From positions 1 through 32,000 of the forward strand of contig CAZGDX010000003.1 of NCBI GenBank assembly GCA_964525225.1: DNA of 32,000 nucleotides, given 5' to 3'. The position numbers and the translations under genes were made by a program. Below, piece after piece: positions 4,080-25,844 of the stretch (the first letter of the stretch is position 1; the number at the start of each line of letters is the position of its first letter). Origin of the DNA: an uncultured Gammaproteobacteria bacterium (GTDB lineage Bacteria > Patescibacteriota > Patescibacteriia > DYHP01). The notes beneath the pieces are model-generated. The model saw nothing but the letters and a program-made list of their open reading frames with translations, did no database searches and was not told the DNA's origin.

Positions 4080-4754
4080 TTATTTCTTTTCTTTTTCCTC
4101 GTCGCCTTCGGCGGACTCTTCATCTTCTTTCTTCGCGCCCACAACTTCAACTTTGGACACATCCGCTTCCACGGACTTATTCAATTCTTCCATTTCTTCT
4201 TCGCTGCGTGGCTCTGAAACCGTCATAATCACTATCTTGGGGTCGGCTACAAGTTCCATGCCTTCCGGAAGCGCGATATCTTCCGCGCGGATGGCATCTC
4301 CGAATTTCTCAAGTTTTGCGAGGTCAACATCAATTTCTGAAACCAACGCCCCCGGCAAACATTTAACGGCAATGGTATTCATGCTCTTGTTCAAAATACC
4401 GGCAAACTCTTTAACGGCTTTGGATTCTCCGATAAAATTCAAAGGAATATCGGCCTCCAATTTTTCCTTCATATCAATCTGGCGGAAATCCGCATGAGAA
4501 ATTTTCATAGAGAGCGGGTCTCTTTGCGCGTCTTGAATCAGAACTTTTAATGTTTCGCCGCCGACTTCCAAGTCAATAAGAGTGGTTTCGCCAACTTCAC
4601 GGTAAATTTTTTCAAACGAAGAAACCGGAAGAACAATGTGCTTCGGTTCGCTTGATTTTCCGTAAACCACTGCCGGTATAAAACCGTCCCGCCTTAACGC
4701 GTTCGGTTTTTGCCCCGCTTCGCGCGTCACAGCTTTTAAAATTTTTGTTTCCAT
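4080..4754 (-). CDS. rplY: 50S ribosomal protein L25 / general stress protein Ctc
   Basis: N-terminus has ALRRDGFIPAVVYGK, then the long Ctc-type beta domain and an acidic C-terminal tail. Confidence 0.9.
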   Translation of the reverse strand: METKILKAVTREAGQKPNALRRDGFIPAVVYGKSSEPKHIVLPVSSFEKIYREVGETTLIDLEVGGETLKVLIQDAQRDPLSMKISHADFRQIDMKEKLEADIPLNFIGESKAVKEFAGILNKSMNTIAVKCLPGALVSEIDVDLAKLEKFGDAIRAEDIALPEGMELVADPKIVIMTVSEPRSEEEMEELNKSVEADVSKVEVVGAKKEDEESAEGDEEKEKK

Positions 4755-4821: not shown

Positions 4822-5907
4822 TCATCTTCTGAGCGCGATGGACTGCAAAATTCCAAACATCGCCATATGCGCCAAAAGCGAGCTTCCGCCATAGCTCAAA
4901 AACGGCAAAGTAAGTCCGGCTACGGGAAAAATACCCAAATTCATCCCGATGTTTACCATTACTTCGGTAAAAATCATAATCGCGACGCCAAGTGAAACAA
5001 GAAAAGCAAAATTATCCCCGCTTTTATAGCCAATCATTAAGGCGCGATACAAAATTACCGCGAAACAACCCAAAATAAAAAGCACCGCCACGAAACCAAG
5101 CTCTTCGGCAATAACCGCGAAAATAAAATCCGTTTGCGCTTCCGGCAAAAACCGCAACTGGCTTTGCGCGCCAAAACCAAGCCCTCTGCCAAAAATTTGT
5201 CCGGAACCGACGGCAATAATGGACTGGATTAAATTATATCCTCTGTTAAACGGATCGCGCGACGGGTCCAAAAAAGTAAGCACGCGCTCCTTCTGATAAT
5301 CGTAAATAAGAAAATTCCATGCTAACACCGAAAATCCAACCAACAAAATTGAAGAAACGACCAAGTGCATTTTTTTAACTCCCAGCACTAGAACAAGACC
5401 GGCCCACAGCGCGAACATCAAAAGCACCGAACCGAAATCCGGCTGAAGAAAAGCTAAAATCATCGGCGCTAAAAAAATCAAAAAACTTTCAACAAGAAGA
5501 CGCTTGCTTTTCCGGCGTTCCAGATTCTTCACAAAAAAACGCGCGGAAATTAAAATCAACGCCAATTTCACAAACTCCACCGGCTGAAAATTTATTCCTC
5601 CCAAAGAAAACCATCCGCTTGTTCCGCGTATGGTTTTACCGAAAAATAAAACCAAAACCAAAAATGATATTCCGATTCCGTAAATAACCCAAGCTGAATC
5701 GCGCCATAAAGTATAATTTAAAAACAATAAAACACAAACCGAAAACAAACCGATAGCCACAAATATCAATTGTTTTTTAAAATACAAAAAATCCAAGTTG
5801 TCTTGAGACAGCGCCACGCTATAAATTGTCGCCAGTCCGATTCCGACCAGCAAAAACACAGCTATAAATAAAACCCAATCAAATTTTCTGAAAAATTCGC
5901 GGTACAT
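4822..5907 (-). CDS. SEDS-family peptidoglycan polymerase (FtsW/RodA/SpoVE)
   Basis: Polytopic membrane protein with PDFGS and LPFLSYGGSSLL signature blocks. RodA and FtsW cannot be told apart by eye. Confidence 0.9.
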   Translation of the reverse strand: MYREFFRKFDWVLFIAVFLLVGIGLATIYSVALSQDNLDFLYFKKQLIFVAIGLFSVCVLLFLNYTLWRDSAWVIYGIGISFLVLVLFFGKTIRGTSGWFSLGGINFQPVEFVKLALILISARFFVKNLERRKSKRLLVESFLIFLAPMILAFLQPDFGSVLLMFALWAGLVLVLGVKKMHLVVSSILLVGFSVLAWNFLIYDYQKERVLTFLDPSRDPFNRGYNLIQSIIAVGSGQIFGRGLGFGAQSQLRFLPEAQTDFIFAVIAEELGFVAVLFILGCFAVILYRALMIGYKSGDNFAFLVSLGVAIMIFTEVMVNIGMNLGIFPVAGLTLPFLSYGGSSLLAHMAMFGILQSIALRR

Positions 5908-11147: not shown

Positions 11148-11264
11148 GATAAAAGGTACAAAACTTCCACTAATTTCTGCCACTAATCCGCACTAATAAA
11201 AAAATTTCAAATTCGTGCGTATTCGTGATAAAAATTAGTGGGGGTCTAGTACATATCTAACTAT

Positions 11265-13575: not shown

Positions 13576-13627
13576 AAAATTGTGTCGCACTTTTGGTACG
13601 GCCGTACCAAAAGTGCGACACAATTTT
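13576..13627. terminator. perfect 52-nt palindrome (26-bp arms), likely bidirectional terminator
   Basis: aaaattgtgtcgcacttttggtacgg|ccgtaccaaaagtgcgacacaatttt. T-tract on both strands. It lies between the convergent dut-fusion and HD genes. Confidence 0.75.
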
Positions 13628-20338: not shown

Positions 20339-21659
20339 TGTATTTACCTTTTAAAATCCATTCTTTCGCCTCTTTTATTTTAATCTTGACTAATTTTCCA
20401 ATCAAATTTTTATCTCCCGGGAATTCCACGAATTTCATCTCGCGCGACCACCCTGAACAATTTCCGTGTTCAATCCTTTCCACCAACACTTCAACCTCTT
20501 GTCCAATATATTTTTGATTTTTCCGAAACGTGGTCTGTCTCATAAATTCCTGCAACATATGCCATCTTTTCTTTTTTTCTTCTCTGGATATATCATCTTT
20601 CAGAGTTTTGGCCGCAACAGTTCCGGAACGCGGGGAATAAATTCCAAGATAAGCAATATCAAAATCGGCTTTTTTGTATAAATCCAAAGTATTTTGAAAT
20701 TTGTTTTCCCCTTCTCCGGAAAAACCAATAATAATATCGGTTCCAATCGCGATTTCCGGCCGTTTGGCGCGTATCTTATCTATAATTTTAAGATAATCTT
20801 CACGGGAATAAGGCCGGTTCATTTTTTTAAGAATTTCATCATCACCCGACTGAACCGCCAGATGCAGATAATTTATCTGATTCGGCAATACAAGCGCGTC
20901 TATTATCTCGTCATTCATATAAATCGGGTGCGCCGAAGTAAAATGCACCCGCTTGATTTCATTAATTTGATTTATCTCCCATAGCAGGGCGGCAAAGTGG
21001 TCTTTGTATGGATTATTTTTACTGAAATTTTCCGGGTCGTTTGCTTTATAATTATTTACCACTTGCCCCAGAAGTTCTATGGAAATACATCCGTTTTCCG
21101 CCAGGTTTTTTACTTCCTCCAAAACATCTTTAACCGGACGGCATTTTTCTCTTCCTCGCGCATACGGCACCGCGCAATATGAGCACATTCGGTCGCATCC
21201 GGTTTGTATCGGAACAAAAGCATGAAATTTTGAAGAATATCTTGGGACAACGGAAAAATAGCTTTCTGGATTCCCGCCTTCGCGGGAATGAAACAGTGCC
21301 CACTCCGGTCTCAATTCCGCAAGTTTAGACGGAAGCTCGTTAAGCTCGGAAATCGGGAAATATAAATCCAAACCCGGCATTTTATCTTTAAATTTTTTTT
21401 CCTTATCCCTGCCCGGCATACAACCGGTTATTGCCACAATCAACTCCGGATTCTGTTTCTTCAGAGCCATATAATTCTTAACCAGCCCAAAAATCCTGTC
21501 TTCAGCCGCTTGCCGCACAGAGCAGGAATTTAAAATAATCAAATCCGCTTCTTTGTCTTTATCAGTTTTTATAAATCCAAAACCTTCCAAAAGTCCCTGG
21601 ATGCGCTCGGAATCGGATTTATTCATCTGGCAGCCGAATGTGGCCAAAAAATACTTCAT
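20331..21659 (-). CDS. miaB: tRNA-i6A37 methylthiotransferase (radical SAM MTTase)
   Basis: N-terminal TFGCQMNKSDSE, radical-SAM cluster GCDRMCSYCAVP and a C-terminal TRAM domain. It overlaps miaA by 8 nt. It carries an in-frame palindromic repeat (FHSREGGNPE) at 21267-21291. Confidence 0.93.
   Translation of the reverse strand: MKYFLATFGCQMNKSDSERIQGLLEGFGFIKTDKDKEADLIILNSCSVRQAAEDRIFGLVKNYMALKKQNPELIVAITGCMPGRDKEKKFKDKMPGLDLYFPISELNELPSKLAELRPEWALFHSREGGNPESYFSVVPRYSSKFHAFVPIQTGCDRMCSYCAVPYARGREKCRPVKDVLEEVKNLAENGCISIELLGQVVNNYKANDPENFSKNNPYKDHFAALLWEINQINEIKRVHFTSAHPIYMNDEIIDALVLPNQINYLHLAVQSGDDEILKKMNRPYSREDYLKIIDKIRAKRPEIAIGTDIIIGFSGEGENKFQNTLDLYKKADFDIAYLGIYSPRSGTVAAKTLKDDISREEKKKRWHMLQEFMRQTTFRKNQKYIGQEVEVLVERIEHGNCSGWSREMKFVEFPGDKNLIGKLVKIKIKEAKEWILKGKYNE
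21267..21291. repeat. palindromic repeat family 1, copy 3, in frame in miaB (read on the opposite strand)
   Basis: tggattcccgccttcgcgggaatga, with the same plus-strand orientation as the other copies. It is translated on the minus strand as FHSREGGNPE, in the linker between the MTTase N-domain and the radical-SAM domain. Confidence 0.9.
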
Positions 21660-21794
21660 ACCCGGTATATCAACATCCGGAGCGTAAAATGTTAGCGATT
21701 ATCCCCGTTTCATTAAAATGATGATAATGCTAATCAAAAATTGTTTTTTTAGATTTATGGCTCGATAATACCGGATGTTGTATTACCGGGCATA
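21660..21794 (-). promoter_or_regulatory. IR-bounded leader cassette, copy A, abutting the miaB ATG
   Basis: Arms are 21661-21680 and 21771-21790, pairing as 7 bp + 3x3 mismatch + 10 bp, with a 90-nt spacer and CATA on both flanks. A paralogous copy lies at 25636-25774, and all arm differences between the two are compensated. Confidence 0.7.
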
Positions 21795-21802
21795 TTTAAG
21801 CA

Positions 21803-21831
21803 ATTATAACCCCAAACCCCAAATAAATCAA
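21803..21831 (-). promoter_or_regulatory. predicted promoter of the miaB-miaA operon
   Basis: On the minus strand TTGATT, 17 nt, TATAAT. The -10 ends 9 nt before the AUG embedded in the 5' arm of leader cassette A. Confidence 0.6.
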
Positions 21832-24441: not shown

Positions 24442-25635
24442 CTATTTTTGAATTATTATCTCTATATTATCTTTAACGCTCGGAATGCTTTTTGACCAAA
24501 ATGGCTGTAAATCTATTTTTACGGATTCTACCGCGCTAAAAGTTTTAAAATAATTTATTGCCGCTTCTTTTTCCATTCCCGCAAGCTTGTTTTTATCAAA
24601 AATCTGGTTTGTGGATTTTAAAATTGTCTCACCTTCAATATAAACTTTTAAAATCGCATTTTCGGAAATTAAATCAAATCTTCCAACTTCGGTTTTTAAT
24701 CCGTTGTAATTTATATTTACGAGTTCCAGTTCCGATATAACGCTTTCTTCCAATTTGGTCTTCGCGGTCTGACGCAACGCCTCAATATCATAAAAAATCC
24801 CGACCACGCGCAATTCCATTGAAAAATTAAACTCGTTTGCTCTTTCCCCTTCATTGTTGTCGGAATCAAAAGAAACGATTTCGCTTCCATAAGTCCTGCC
24901 GGCAAAATTTTGCGGAGCGACCAATTCCAATTCCCTTTTCCCTTTTTCCAAAAGTTCAATGGAGAGTTTCTCGGCGGCGCGCGCGATATCTTCTTTTGAA
25001 ACCGCGGTTGCGTTTTCACTCTGAATTTTTGTCGGTCCAGAAAGTTCCGCGTAAATTTCGCTCTGCAAACTTAACGGCAATCCCGGTATCGTCATTTTTG
25101 ATGAGGAAACTTCACTGCTTGTTCCCGGCTTGTCAGCATAAACTTGCGCATTGGCGCTTCCTTTTGCGGGCACCGAAACAGTGTTGTTTAATCTGAATAA
25201 AATATTATCCTGAGTTAAAAGGCGCGTGGTTTTTACTAATGTCTGCGAATTTGAAGTATTATTATAAATAATTGCTTCGCCTGTTGCTTTCGCGTTTTCC
25301 GCCACATAAACTCCGGTTGCCGGTTCTTTTATTTCGCCCTGAATTTTTACGGAAAACAACGCCCCTGATACAGTATCGCGCGAAGCTGGTTCTTTCTCAA
25401 CATTAACGGAAAAATCAAGCGATACTTTCTCTTTCGTAGGAATAATGGTTATTGTGGCTTTAGAAAACGATAAATAAATCATTAGCCCTAAAAGAACAAG
25501 TGTCAAACCCAAAAAAACAGCCGCTATCCTTTTATAAAGCCGCACGTAAACAACCGGTTTTTGCGCCGGAAAATTCATTTCATCTTCATCCAAATATTGC
25601 CCGGCTCTATCGCCAAATTTTCTTTTATATATCAT
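24442..25635 (-). CDS. hypothetical membrane-anchored protein
   Basis: 397 aa with one TM helix (IAAVFLGLTLVLLGLMIYLSF) followed by a beta-rich extracytoplasmic region. First gene of the thrS operon. No family recognised. Confidence 0.65.
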   Translation of the reverse strand: MIYKRKFGDRAGQYLDEDEMNFPAQKPVVYVRLYKRIAAVFLGLTLVLLGLMIYLSFSKATITIIPTKEKVSLDFSVNVEKEPASRDTVSGALFSVKIQGEIKEPATGVYVAENAKATGEAIIYNNTSNSQTLVKTTRLLTQDNILFRLNNTVSVPAKGSANAQVYADKPGTSSEVSSSKMTIPGLPLSLQSEIYAELSGPTKIQSENATAVSKEDIARAAEKLSIELLEKGKRELELVAPQNFAGRTYGSEIVSFDSDNNEGERANEFNFSMELRVVGIFYDIEALRQTAKTKLEESVISELELVNINYNGLKTEVGRFDLISENAILKVYIEGETILKSTNQIFDKNKLAGMEKEAAINYFKTFSAVESVKIDLQPFWSKSIPSVKDNIEIIIQK

Positions 25636-25774
25636 ACCCAGTATATCAACTTTCAGAAATAAACGTTTGGCAAACAGATTTTACCCCATCGTTAACTCTG
25701 AAAACTGATAAAGAATTATTATAGGTTATAGGATTAATGTCCGTAAACAACTGAAAGTTGTATTACTGGGCATA
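25636..25774 (-). promoter_or_regulatory. IR-bounded leader cassette, copy B, abutting the ATG of the first gene of the thrS operon
   Basis: Arms are 25637-25656 and 25751-25770 with the same 7+3+10 architecture, a 94-nt spacer and CATA flanks. Confidence 0.7.
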
Positions 25775-25781
25775 CACTTAT

Positions 25782-25790
25782 ATTTTAACA
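25782..25790 (-). promoter_or_regulatory. predicted extended -10 promoter element of the thrS operon
   Basis: On the minus strand TGtTAAAAT. The -35 is weak (TTACTT). The -10 ends 8 nt before the AUG embedded in the 5' arm of leader cassette B. Confidence 0.4.
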
Positions 25791-25808
25791 CAAATAGAGC
25801 TAAAAAGT

Positions 25809-25844
25809 AAATGTCAGGGACTAAAATTTTCGTCCCTGACATTT
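25809..25844 (-). terminator. rho-independent terminator after dnaE
   Basis: 12-bp stem aaatgtcaggga/tccctgacattt starting directly after the stop codon, with T5 on the minus strand. Confidence 0.75.

Follow-up and report, generated by a model that had tools for sequence, protein, structure and literature searches.

The window, a 32,000-nt stretch of DNA, contains two cassettes of about 130 bp on the minus strand, here called copy A (21661-21790, 130 bp) and copy B (25637-25770, 134 bp), each of which adjoins a start codon. In both cassettes, 20-nt arms pair over 7 bp, are interrupted by a 3x3 mismatch and pair over a further 10 bp. The 5' arm of copy A, cccggtaatacaacatccgg (21790-21771, minus strand), and its 3' arm, ccggatgttgatataccggg (21680-21661, minus strand), form 7 bp, AUA opposite AUA, and 10 bp across a 90-nt spacer, and 1 nt separates the 3' arm from the miaB ATG (21659-21657). 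Copy B has the same architecture, with arms at 25770-25751 and 25656-25637 that lie 94 nt apart, and is in direct contact with the ATG of an ORF at 24442-25635. The two copies differ at four arm positions, with 4/4 of the differences compensated. An earlier note on this DNA had described the arms of copy A, their 90-nt spacing and abutment to the miaB ATG, a TTGATT-17-TATAAT promoter at 21831-21803, a second copy of identical architecture and the four compensated differences, all of which were confirmed on the sequence and by comparison of the arms. Overlooked by its author were the direct TATG repeats that flank both copy A (21794-21791, 21660-21657) and copy B (25774-25771, 25636-25633). The features of the two loci are listed below.

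21803..21831, minus strand: host promoter of miaB, TTGATT-17-TATAAT, with the -10 box ending 9 nt before the upstream ATG copy
21791..21794, minus strand: upstream TATG duplication of copy A, with its ATG (21793-21791) where miaB originally started; TATG is single in relatives
21771..21790, minus strand: 5' terminal inverted repeat of copy A, CCCGGTA-ATA-CAAC-ATCCGG, from arm pairing
21755..21793, minus strand: short upstream ORF of copy A from the duplicated ATG, MPGNTTSGIIEP and stop, in the nuclease-ORF frame of full-length relatives, cut short
21681..21770, minus strand: interior of copy A, 90 nt, without nuclease ORF and unconserved between subfamilies
21661..21680, minus strand: 3' terminal inverted repeat of copy A, CCGGAT-GTTG-ATA-TACCGGG, from arm pairing
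21657..21660, minus strand: downstream TATG duplication of copy A, with its ATG (21659-21657) as the miaB start codon
20331..21659, minus strand: miaB, the host gene hit at its start codon (Pfam UPF0004, Radical_SAM, TRAM)
25782..25811, minus strand: host promoter 5' of copy B, TTTACT-18-TAAAAT with TG, from the promoter motif
25771..25774, minus strand: upstream TATG duplication of copy B, from the flank repeat
25751..25770, minus strand: 5' terminal inverted repeat of copy B, CCCAGTA-ATA-CAAC-TTTCAG, from arm pairing
25726..25773, minus strand: short upstream ORF of copy B from the duplicated ATG, MPSNTTFSCLRTLIL and stop, by translation
25657..25750, minus strand: interior of copy B, 94 nt, without nuclease ORF, from the sequence
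25637..25656, minus strand: 3' terminal inverted repeat of copy B, CTGAAA-GTTG-ATA-TACTGGG, from arm pairing
25633..25636, minus strand: downstream TATG duplication of copy B, with its ATG (25635-25633) starting a 397-aa ORF

The 397-aa ORF 3' of copy B is the first gene of an operon that includes thrS. A terminator-like hairpin (21865-21843) lies just upstream of the copy A promoter, and a near-perfect palindrome (25809-25844) lies just upstream of the copy B promoter and overlaps it. Read in frame with the upstream ATG, the 5' repeat of copy A translates as M-P-G-N-T-T-S-G, and a TGA in its 3' repeat (21672-21670) corresponds to the stop codon of the nuclease ORF carried by full-length relatives. 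The upstream ORFs of copies A and B extend for only 12 and 15 codons, and no nuclease gene was found within the 32-kb window. RNA folding gave -42.0 kcal/mol for copy A (z = -5.0) and -42.4 kcal/mol for copy B (z = -4.6), with 0/200 shuffles as stable. A start codon lacking a Shine-Dalgarno (SD) sequence is normal in the window, because only about 5/28 gene starts have an AGGAG-type site; the statement that many other genes carry such sites was overstated.

A pattern scan of genomes recovered at least 115 loci and at least 125 bona fide copies, nearly every one of them in a Patescibacteria MAG, with many copies per genome; the patterns fixed 10 nt per arm, so that the invariance of those positions is by construction, the copies are phylogenetically non-independent, and ORFs were called mechanically. 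What the earlier note took for a two-member family has hundreds of copies in front of unrelated genes, including those for DnaB, NusG, MreB, PGK, DnaE, Fpg and ribosomal proteins. Identical 4-nt flanks were present in 107/125 copies and comprised at least 17 different tetranucleotides, with TATG accounting for 73 and sometimes replaced by ATGA or CATG. Across 147 unique sites, sequence information is confined to the four duplicated positions. Three miaB relatives (loci L238, L239 and L240; 81%, 77% and 63% amino-acid identity) carry a single, empty TATG in the arrangement promoter-TATG-AAG, and these empty sites have a promoter of like type 9-15 nt before the ATG. The miaB "leader" is an insertion and not a miaB regulator. 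Copies without an ORF also form tandem arrays. In a 14-nt arm scan of viral contigs, only chance matches were seen, none with a partner arm.

Insertion is strongly concentrated at gene starts. Of 112 evaluable copies, 96 lie on a start codon (89 co-oriented with the gene, 5 reversed, and 2 serving genes on both sides), as compared to an expectation of ~23% under random TATG use and loss of within-ORF insertions (345 start sites vs 1151 other non-ORF sites). The remaining 16 copies are away from start codons, several of them in -35 boxes (TTGA/CA, split at the slash) or terminator loops. Location away from 5' ends had been put forward as the sign of a plain MITE, a guide that would have misled here because this mobile element is almost always found at start codons.

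In a set of 64 diverse copies taken from other genomes, pairing held for 98.9% of arm cells, as compared to 82.6% in shuffles and 20-38% with slid partners, and double-sided arm changes numbered 162 vs 33 in shuffles. At the six arm pairs that vary, 96-99% of copies have Watson-Crick bases. The selection on pairing suggested from two copies is thus borne out by very strong covariation in more than 100. The 750 variable-pair cells include 6 G.T (G.U) and 4 A.C, with no wobble excess. Since G.U is not in excess over A.C, the arm pairs point to pairing at the level of DNA rather than RNA. Of the two options first offered for the helix, the recombinase-type inverted repeat was close to the truth; the RNA helix is not favored by these counts. 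Interiors are unrelated between subfamilies and have no conserved core, so the "gatt..cccc" spacer block described as conserved is not a family feature, and neither base-composition skew nor SD-like motifs were found in the interior. Among ORF-less copies, frame 0 is stop-free through the interior in 17/54 sequence clusters, as compared to 1-7/54 for each of the five other frames and 6.8% in shuffles. An early stop interrupts the upstream ORF in both window copies and in roughly two thirds of ORF-less copies.

The same ~20-bp arms also bracket a longer form. In a metagenome scan, 88 single elements were recovered, most commonly 312 bp in length. The sole ORF in 81 of them is a GIY-YIG ORF that shares the frame of the flanking ATG; it is intact through to the 3'-arm TGA in 72 of the 88. 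The ATG-to-ATG distance is 1 mod 3 in 82/88, and a host ORF directly follows 81/85 evaluable elements, including those for DnaB, NusG, MreB, PGK and a GltX-type synthetase. From the duplicated host ATG, the reading frame crosses the 5' arm (M-P-S/G/R-N-T-T) and ends at a TGA 10 nt before the host ATG. The first ~8 nuclease codons and the stop codon are built into the repeats, and likewise in other repeat variants. The TGA stop in the 3' arm arises from the three-base "mismatch" between the arms, and in three repeat variants the sole arm-to-arm difference creates a stop codon (TGA, TAA or TAG).

The product is a ~101-aa GIY-YIG nuclease resembling Slx1/UPF0213. It scores 47-58 bits against Pfam PF01541 (cutoff 22.6), its alignment has invariant Y, G, R, H and E columns, and UPF0213 and Slx1 are the closest folds to its AlphaFold model (pLDDT 87.5); the top-ranking entries by sequence and fold were 1zg2, 7cq3, 4xm5 and 6sei. 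A median dN/dS of 0.13 indicates purifying selection on the nuclease. Both ORF-bearing and ORF-less copies are present in the assemblies Kerfeldbacteria JACRFN01 and Saccharibacteria CAYJKV01. Apart from the arms, ORF-less copies showed no similarity to the nuclease gene; it is the shared ends that suggest a derivation of the short copies from the full-length form. Other GIY-YIG genes in the same loci (L008, L024, L025, L028, L039, L076, L081 and L084) do not have these arms and fall on more distant branches. Strains seemed to differ in spacing 3' of the nuclease gene (L241-L248), but the differences proved to be runs of masked N and not polymorphism.

Judged from these sequence comparisons, both window cassettes are probably non-autonomous, ORF-less copies, of MITE type, of a very small mobile-element family widespread in Patescibacteria. 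The copies have terminal inverted repeats, a duplication of fixed length and empty orthologous sites, and are small and multi-copy with no gene for movement; the longer form with identical ends (88 examples) encodes only the GIY-YIG nuclease, whose role in movement is putative. The earlier distinction from a MITE does not survive the target duplications and empty sites. The family is apparently undescribed, as searches of Rfam and the literature found no description of the element. It resembles the Correia/NEMIS (Neisseria), ERIC (enterobacteria) and RUP (pneumococcus) MITEs, which are likewise 100-150 bp long with terminal inverted repeats and target duplications, occur in many copies per genome, are co-transcribed with neighbors and can fold over the whole element. 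Those elements duplicate TA or a similar sequence, are scattered in intergenic DNA and derive from DDE insertion sequences, whereas the Patescibacteria family has a 4-bp duplication, lies exactly on the start codon in ~86% of evaluable copies and in one orientation, and has an ORF-bearing partner that encodes a GIY-YIG nuclease in place of a transposase. Rickettsia palindromic elements and mitochondrial "byp" elements are also small palindromic mobile inserts that translation tolerates in or against coding regions; these sit inside ORFs and are translated in frame or bypassed, while the family sits on the start codon, with its own stop just before the regenerated ATG.

The repeats, the duplicated targets, the placement on start codons, the orientation and the site of the stop codon are direct observations; the mode of movement and the continued expression of host genes are proposals. 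Insertions carry a duplicated 4-bp target, which almost always includes the host start codon, and run in the same direction as the host gene. The upstream ATG copy, with the host promoter and initiation context, becomes the start of the element reading frame. The nuclease, whose relatives cut branched DNA, may move the element by acting on a hairpin or cruciform formed by the repeats. Insertions must be compatible with expression because they precede essential genes (DnaB, DnaE, NusG and ribosomal proteins), and host expression could be kept if ribosomes finish the element frame and re-initiate at the nearby host ATG. Alternatively, the passage of ribosomes might open the helix that hides the host ATG. 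Simple coupling by stop and restart cannot explain host expression for the window copies and the other ORF-less copies with early stops in their upstream ORFs. With truncated ORFs of 12 and 15 codons, the window copies would be mobilized in trans, if at all.

Taken to its full extent, the proposal is that the family may represent a new class of autonomous DNA transposon, at ~312 bp the smallest known, in which a ~101-aa Slx1/UPF0213-type nuclease would act on the end hairpin or cruciform, start codons would be targeted, the host promoter and ATG would be borrowed and ribosomes returned by way of the stop in the 3' repeat; the window cassettes would be its non-autonomous offspring. We consider this extended reading about evenly balanced between right and wrong. 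We know of no GIY-YIG nuclease that serves as a transposase.

One alternative is that a conventional transposase encoded elsewhere, such as a DDE enzyme of the IS1380/piggyBac type, mobilizes what is an ordinary MITE, with the GIY-YIG gene as a passenger or a repeatedly hit host gene. Terminal repeats with a 4-bp duplication are a classic mark of DDE transposases. The termini of piggyBac (CCC...GGG) and its 4-bp duplications, rare TATG among them, are shared with the family, and IS1380 is its bacterial relative (PMC10813416). Unlike piggyBac/IS1380, however, the family targets TATG at start codons and not TTAA, the whole element is ~312 bp, and no DDE transposase was found in the flanks, while elements with matching ends hold the nuclease only; the piggyBac/IS1380 lead was kept as a resemblance only. 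A search of ~0.8 Mb of flanking DNA for unpaired arms and repeated ORFs returned no repeated IS-like ORF. Moreover, the nuclease is the sole ORF in 81/88 elements and has its ends built into the repeats, which is not expected of a passenger; it is also under purifying selection. We therefore regard a conventional transposase as unlikely. The longer arm pairs encountered here came from a different small element, with ends CCCAGTACCAGAG, present as nested copies.

A second alternative is that the cassette is maintained chiefly as an expression module: the 3' arm (TGaTATACT) would act as an outward-facing extended -10 promoter and restore a leaderless mRNA, or RNase cleavage at the hairpin base would release an mRNA beginning with AUG. 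The 3' arm does match TGnTATAAT, followed by GGG, the reversed arm has no such match, which would explain the orientation bias, and most host genes lack an SD sequence and have a -10 box 5-9 nt ahead of the ATG. However, the start codon is only 3-5 nt past the putative -10 hexamer, as compared to 5-9 nt or more at native promoters of the same loci, and ~35% of copies have C or G in place of the final T at the critical last hexamer position. The cassette is also present at operon-internal starts. These data make an outward promoter in the 3' arm unlikely and the expression-module reading as a whole distinctly improbable.

The nuclease gene could instead be that of a homing endonuclease, which cuts empty alleles and is copied into them during repair, with inverted repeats serving RNA-level purposes only. 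GIY-YIG domains are classic homing endonucleases, and the small selfish GIY-YIG genes of I-TevI and T4 Seg, whether free-standing or borne by introns, also lie between or before host genes and use host expression signals. GIY-YIG ORFs have been described in non-intron insertions of Patescibacteria rRNA genes (PMC11270868). Homing enzymes such as I-TevI and Seg recognize one long target and leave neither terminal repeats nor target duplications, whereas the family hits dozens of unrelated genes with only TATG in common, its flanks are duplicated, and its ORF-less copies multiply into arrays. The family nuclease also lacks a DNA-binding extension and groups with Slx1/UPF0213 rather than I-TevI, so that homing appears very unlikely. 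It has the minimal GIY-YIG fold in common with Slx1/UPF0213 (YhbQ-type) proteins. Slx1 itself cuts flaps, junctions and stem-loops. The Slx1/UPF0213 lineage is regarded as one of vertically inherited repair enzymes and not selfish genes (PMC1564403); unlike these, the family gene is multi-copy and has both ends encoded by the element's inverted repeats.

A gene-specific cis-regulatory RNA leader, riboswitch-like or a translational operator, that hides the start codons of miaB and the neighboring operon would agree with the stable RNA folds, a helix that would bury the AUG region, the strong covariation and the location of copies at 5' ends, but is already contradicted and deserves hardly any credence, as the cassette is missing from orthologous miaB genes with empty TATG sites, precedes dozens of unrelated genes, carries 4-bp target duplications, has an unconserved interior and arm pairs free of wobble bias, and has no Rfam match at gathering score or E <= 1. 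The earlier note had preferred this reading while recognizing no named RNA family, in which it was correct. Further copies in other genomes, to which it had looked for support, do exist (at least 125, with arms 98.9% paired); the regulatory-leader reading fails all the same.

If the proposed steps of the insertion mechanism hold, they would extend the short list of enzymes known to move DNA transposons by one nuclease type, and would describe a parasite "designed" to be harmless, which takes over a start codon and then hands it back. Such insertions would explain why, in Patescibacteria genomes, gene starts are recurrently mis-called and spurious small ORFs arise. In these bacteria, which are difficult to cultivate, the elements may also offer a natural test bed for initiation without Shine-Dalgarno sequences and for re-initiation past a stop codon, and tool builders could take an interest in a nuclease that is very small, structure-guided and directed at a defined DNA substrate. 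Finally, several copies lie at contig ends, and assembly breaks may therefore share a cause with these elements.

Two related cassettes occupy the minus strand of the window: copy A abuts the miaB start codon and copy B precedes the next operon (first gene: ORF 24442-25635).

Features of copies A and B and of the DNA directly upstream
21865-21843: terminator-like hairpin directly upstream of the copy A promoter
21831-21803: sigma-70-type promoter directly upstream of copy A
21790-21771, minus: copy A 5' arm
21680-21661, minus: copy A 3' arm, 90 nt from the 5' arm
25809-25844: near-perfect palindrome directly upstream of and overlapping the copy B promoter
25811-25782, minus: sigma-70-type promoter directly upstream of copy B
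25770-25751, minus: copy B 5' arm
25656-25637, minus: copy B 3' arm, 94 nt from the 5' arm

In both copies the arms pair as 7 bp, a 3x3 mismatch (ATA opposite ATA) and 10 bp, and all four arm positions that differ between them are compensated; the earlier note had described this correctly, together with the copy A promoter. The RNA folds are far better than those of shuffled sequence (copy A, -42.0 kcal/mol, z = -5.0; copy B, -42.4 kcal/mol, z = -4.6), and the same hairpin is possible on both DNA strands. As the note had surmised, no named RNA family was matched in Rfam. Overlooked was a direct repeat, TATG, flanking each copy, the 3' member of which supplies the gene's ATG. Family-wide conservation of a gatt..cccc spacer block was not borne out, nor was the statement that many genes here carry AGGAG sites: AGGAG-type sites occur at only ~5 of 28 window gene starts, so a start lacking a Shine-Dalgarno site is nothing unusual for this genome. 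In copy A, a further ATG within the variable part of the 3' arm (window 21665-21680, minus strand) opens a 6-codon mini-ORF (ATG TTG ATA TAC CGG GTA TGA); its stop and the miaB ATG overlap as ATGA, possibly by chance.

Rather than the two members proposed, a scan of one genome per species with the pattern GTAATACAAC-N(90-120)-GTTGATATAC returned at least 115 loci (numbered with L below) holding at least 125 copies whose outer ends are complementary. Patescibacteria MAGs account for nearly all listed copies (Doudna-, Kerfeld-, Uhr-, Azam-, Lipton-, Terry-, Komeili-, Portnoy- and Yanofskybacteria, and Saccharibacteria). Several copies are present in many of the genomes, and copies are not independent samples. 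MAG labels are partly doubtful, as with "uncultured Gammaproteobacteria" assemblies rich in copies; one of these, CAZQSS01, has more than 10 copies of one subfamily (L004, L063, L066, L074, L086, L088, L092, L096) amid Patescibacteria-like gene content, and its label is probably wrong.

Identical 4-base flanks are present at both ends of 107 of the 125 listed copies and comprise at least 17 tetranucleotides: TATG (73 copies), ATGA (9), CATG and TTGA (4 each), TCAA (3), TTTA and CATA (2 each), and TGTG, CACG, CCTA, CAAA, TGAA and others (1 each). This repeat is a 4-bp target-site duplication; tandem arrays with a shared TATG are also present (L081, L016, L106). The closest miaB relatives, in L238, L239 and L240 (81%, 77% and 63% amino-acid identity to the window protein), lack the element and have a promoter of like kind, 9-15 nt, a single TATG and AAG/AAA. 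Copy A is therefore an insertion. At the level of sequence, terminal repeats, 4-bp duplications and empty sites show a family of mobile elements, and the window cassettes are MITE-type copies, an already known kind that the earlier note had argued against. Two Doudnabacteria species have a copy at the same CCTA site upstream of an orthologous gene (L078, L079), and two Uhrbacteria species have one at the rplV start codon (L038, L046); these are either old insertions or sites struck twice.

With ORFs and gene starts called mechanically, 89 of the 125 listed copies sit at the start codon of a co-oriented ORF of at least 60 codons, 5 at a start codon in reverse, and 2 serve genes on both sides; 8 have another copy next in tandem, 5 are too close to a contig end for evaluation and 16 lie elsewhere. 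Start-codon position is found for 96 of the 112 evaluable listed copies. GTG and TTG starts are also targeted (L002, L097, L024) and the duplication may be offset by 1-2 bases from the ATG (ATGA, TTTA/TG, CCAT/G, TGAA); what the sites share is therefore a start codon, not the word TATG. When TATG was recounted in the same loci with elements removed, 345 occurrences coincided with the first start of ORFs 100 codons or longer, 1151 lay elsewhere in non-ORF DNA and 3687 within ORFs. Random TATG use with loss of intra-ORF insertions would place ~23% at starts, and essentially all TATG-flanked copies are there. Taken together, the mapped copies show a strict start-codon position and orientation.

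Across 147 unique sites, sequence information is limited to the four duplicated positions. The T at position -1 merely reflects what normally precedes start codons in this genome (~77% of window genes). Upstream flanks are devoid of Shine-Dalgarno sites; many have a -10 box placed 5-9 nt ahead of the ATG, and others adjoin the preceding gene's stop codon (e.g. rpsS and rplV in L038). Among the 16 off-site copies, several fall in -35 boxes (TTGA/CA; L031, L073, L080, and L018 reversed), one occupies a -10 box (L012) and two occupy terminator loops (L055, L062), with mixed orientation at -35 sites (4 versus 3). Most window genes lack a Shine-Dalgarno site, and for several a -10-like box is located only a few nt upstream, a pattern suggestive of widespread leaderless or very-short-leader mRNAs.

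The invariance of 10 bases in each arm arises by construction, because the search pattern fixed them; other variants of the ends exist. The six variable positions beside CAAC/GTTG are Watson-Crick paired in 96-99% of the 125 listed copies, with three to five pair types each, and pairing collapses just beyond. In 64 diverse copies, 98.9% of arm cells are paired (82.6% in shuffles, 20-38% with slid partners), with 162 double-sided changes versus 33 in shuffles and a covariation score of 0.42 versus 0.09. The suggested selection on pairing is upheld by this covariation. Its reading as an RNA helix is not, since the rare non-canonical cells are unbiased (6 G.T versus 4 A.C); the pairing appears to fit a DNA-level or both-strand requirement.

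At two genome loci a small gene is enclosed by the same ends. In L019 a canonical 5' arm continues in frame into MFYYVYVLES..YIGYTNNLKRRLLEH, ending at the contig end. In L091 variant arms (CCCAGTAACAATACTTCCCC and GGGGAAGTAGTTGTTACTGGA) bracket a 100-aa GIY-YIG ORF that starts at the flanking ATG and stops inside the 3' arm, followed by a canonical ORF-less copy and an ABC permease gene. A protein search found more than 250 relatives; about 40 of the closest have ~100 aa, their N-termini (MPSNNTSP, MPSNKTS, MPSKTTS and similar) and C-termini are arm-encoded, and more distant 84-aa relatives lack such tails. DNA context before DnaE, Fpg and a membrane protein confirmed this architecture, and L253, interrupted by a contig end, has the same ends and a flanking TATG; three more end variants are represented at these loci. 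In L255 the canonical element is complete and measures 313 bp.

When metagenomes were scanned for the same two 10-mers at a spacing of 270-300 nt, at least 120 loci matched, and these contain at least 88 single elements with complementary ends (modal length 312 bp). Among the 88 listed, 81 have a GIY-YIG ORF in frame with the flanking ATG, and in 72 this ORF runs unbroken from that ATG as far as the TGA within GTTGATATAC (100-103 aa); in 82 the two ATGs are separated by a distance of 1 mod 3, and 60 have TATG on both sides. A host ORF begins at the 3' ATG in 81 of 85 evaluable listed elements, with Pfam assignments including DnaB, NusG, MreB, PGK, a GltX-type synthetase and a ComM-like protein. 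A median dN/dS of 0.13 (593 pairs, arm-encoded ends excluded) indicates purifying selection on the nuclease ORF, and these comparisons show a single constrained gene built into the element ends. The protein matches Pfam GIY-YIG, and its AlphaFold model (pLDDT 87.5, low confidence only in the arm-encoded tails) is predicted to resemble UPF0213 BH0048 and the Slx1 nuclease domain best, more closely than I-TevI and UvrC. Slx1 enzymes act by cutting branched DNA. The bacterial relatives of Slx1 have been viewed as a lineage of repair enzymes that is not selfish (PMC1564403). Pseudogenes, with either a premature stop or an A-run frameshift, occur among the ORF-bearing copies (L254 319-510; L255 1001-1120; L258; L329), consistent with a cycle of decay.

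In the ORF frame the canonical 5' arm reads AGT AAT ACA AC. (S-N-T-T) and the 3' arm ..GGA AGT TGA TAT AC. The ATA/TAT asymmetry creates the ORF-ending TGA, 10 nt before the host ATG; in two other end variants the sole asymmetry is a one-base bulge, creating TAA or TAG at the equivalent place. The same asymmetry places a TAA in the 5' arm, which in ATGA-type insertions would end host-initiated translation after three codons. ORF-less interiors are unrelated to the nuclease gene, and their upstream-ATG frame is stop-free in 17 of 54 sequence clusters (1-7 for each of the other five frames; 6.8% in composition-preserving shuffles). The encoded peptides showed no conservation when compared, and among the 22 copies whose spacing is in frame, none has a frame that continues into the host gene. 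Judged from these reading frames, it is openness that is kept, not a protein. Neither window copy has the long open frame (copy A: spacing 134, 2 mod 3, stop after 12 codons; copy B: 138, 0 mod 3, stop after 15).

The nuclease would move the element, and we infer this because other enzyme genes were not found in the ~0.8 Mb of flanking DNA surveyed, its relatives are structure-specific and the pairing seems DNA-level. The host gene would be translated by re-initiation after the built-in stop or, alternatively, once the helix has been opened by translation of the upstream ORF. For movement, the main rival is a conventional transposase encoded elsewhere, which the likeness of ends and duplication length to piggyBac/IS1380 favors (PMC10813416). 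Cleavage at the hairpin base may be an extra feature, and so may an outward promoter in the 3' arm; the promoter reading agrees poorly with the spacing, since a mere 3-5 nt separate the putative -10 box from the start codon. Full-text literature searches turned up no account of the element. The closest statement in print concerns GIY-YIG ORFs in non-intron insertions of Patescibacteria rRNA genes, in a pattern unlike homing (PMC11270868); the family and its start-codon lifestyle appear undescribed.

A second small inverted-repeat element (ends CCCAGTACCAGAG...CTCTTGGTGTCTGGG, with a common CCCAGTA terminus) is nested inside copies at L016 4316-4590, L111 1180-1720 (+) and L084 3125-3710 (-), apparently flanked by GCTCGCC repeats. 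In L003 (-, about 5575-5835) and L071 (-, about 1805-2065) a ~250-nt relative with ends CCCAGTAAACAAAAC...GTTATTGTTACTGGG immediately precedes a canonical copy, one TATG being common to both. The copy at L003 2113-2252 (+) lacks the 3x3 mismatch because both arms are of the 5' type (AATAC); its flank repeats do not match, and two copies may have recombined to produce it. GIY-YIG genes that are more distant and lack these arms directly adjoin or sit between tRNA-like sequences (L028, -, about 4194-4470; L076 2355-2694; L008 1855-2200) and may represent a different GIY-YIG insertion type. The window itself holds a 42-nt imperfect inverted repeat at 11156-11252 (76% complementary, 13-nt spacer) with recurring CACTAAT/ATTAGTG-like words, and a perfect, spacerless 26+26 bp palindrome at 13576-13627 (AAAATTGTGTCGCACTTTTGGTACGG / CCGTACC...).
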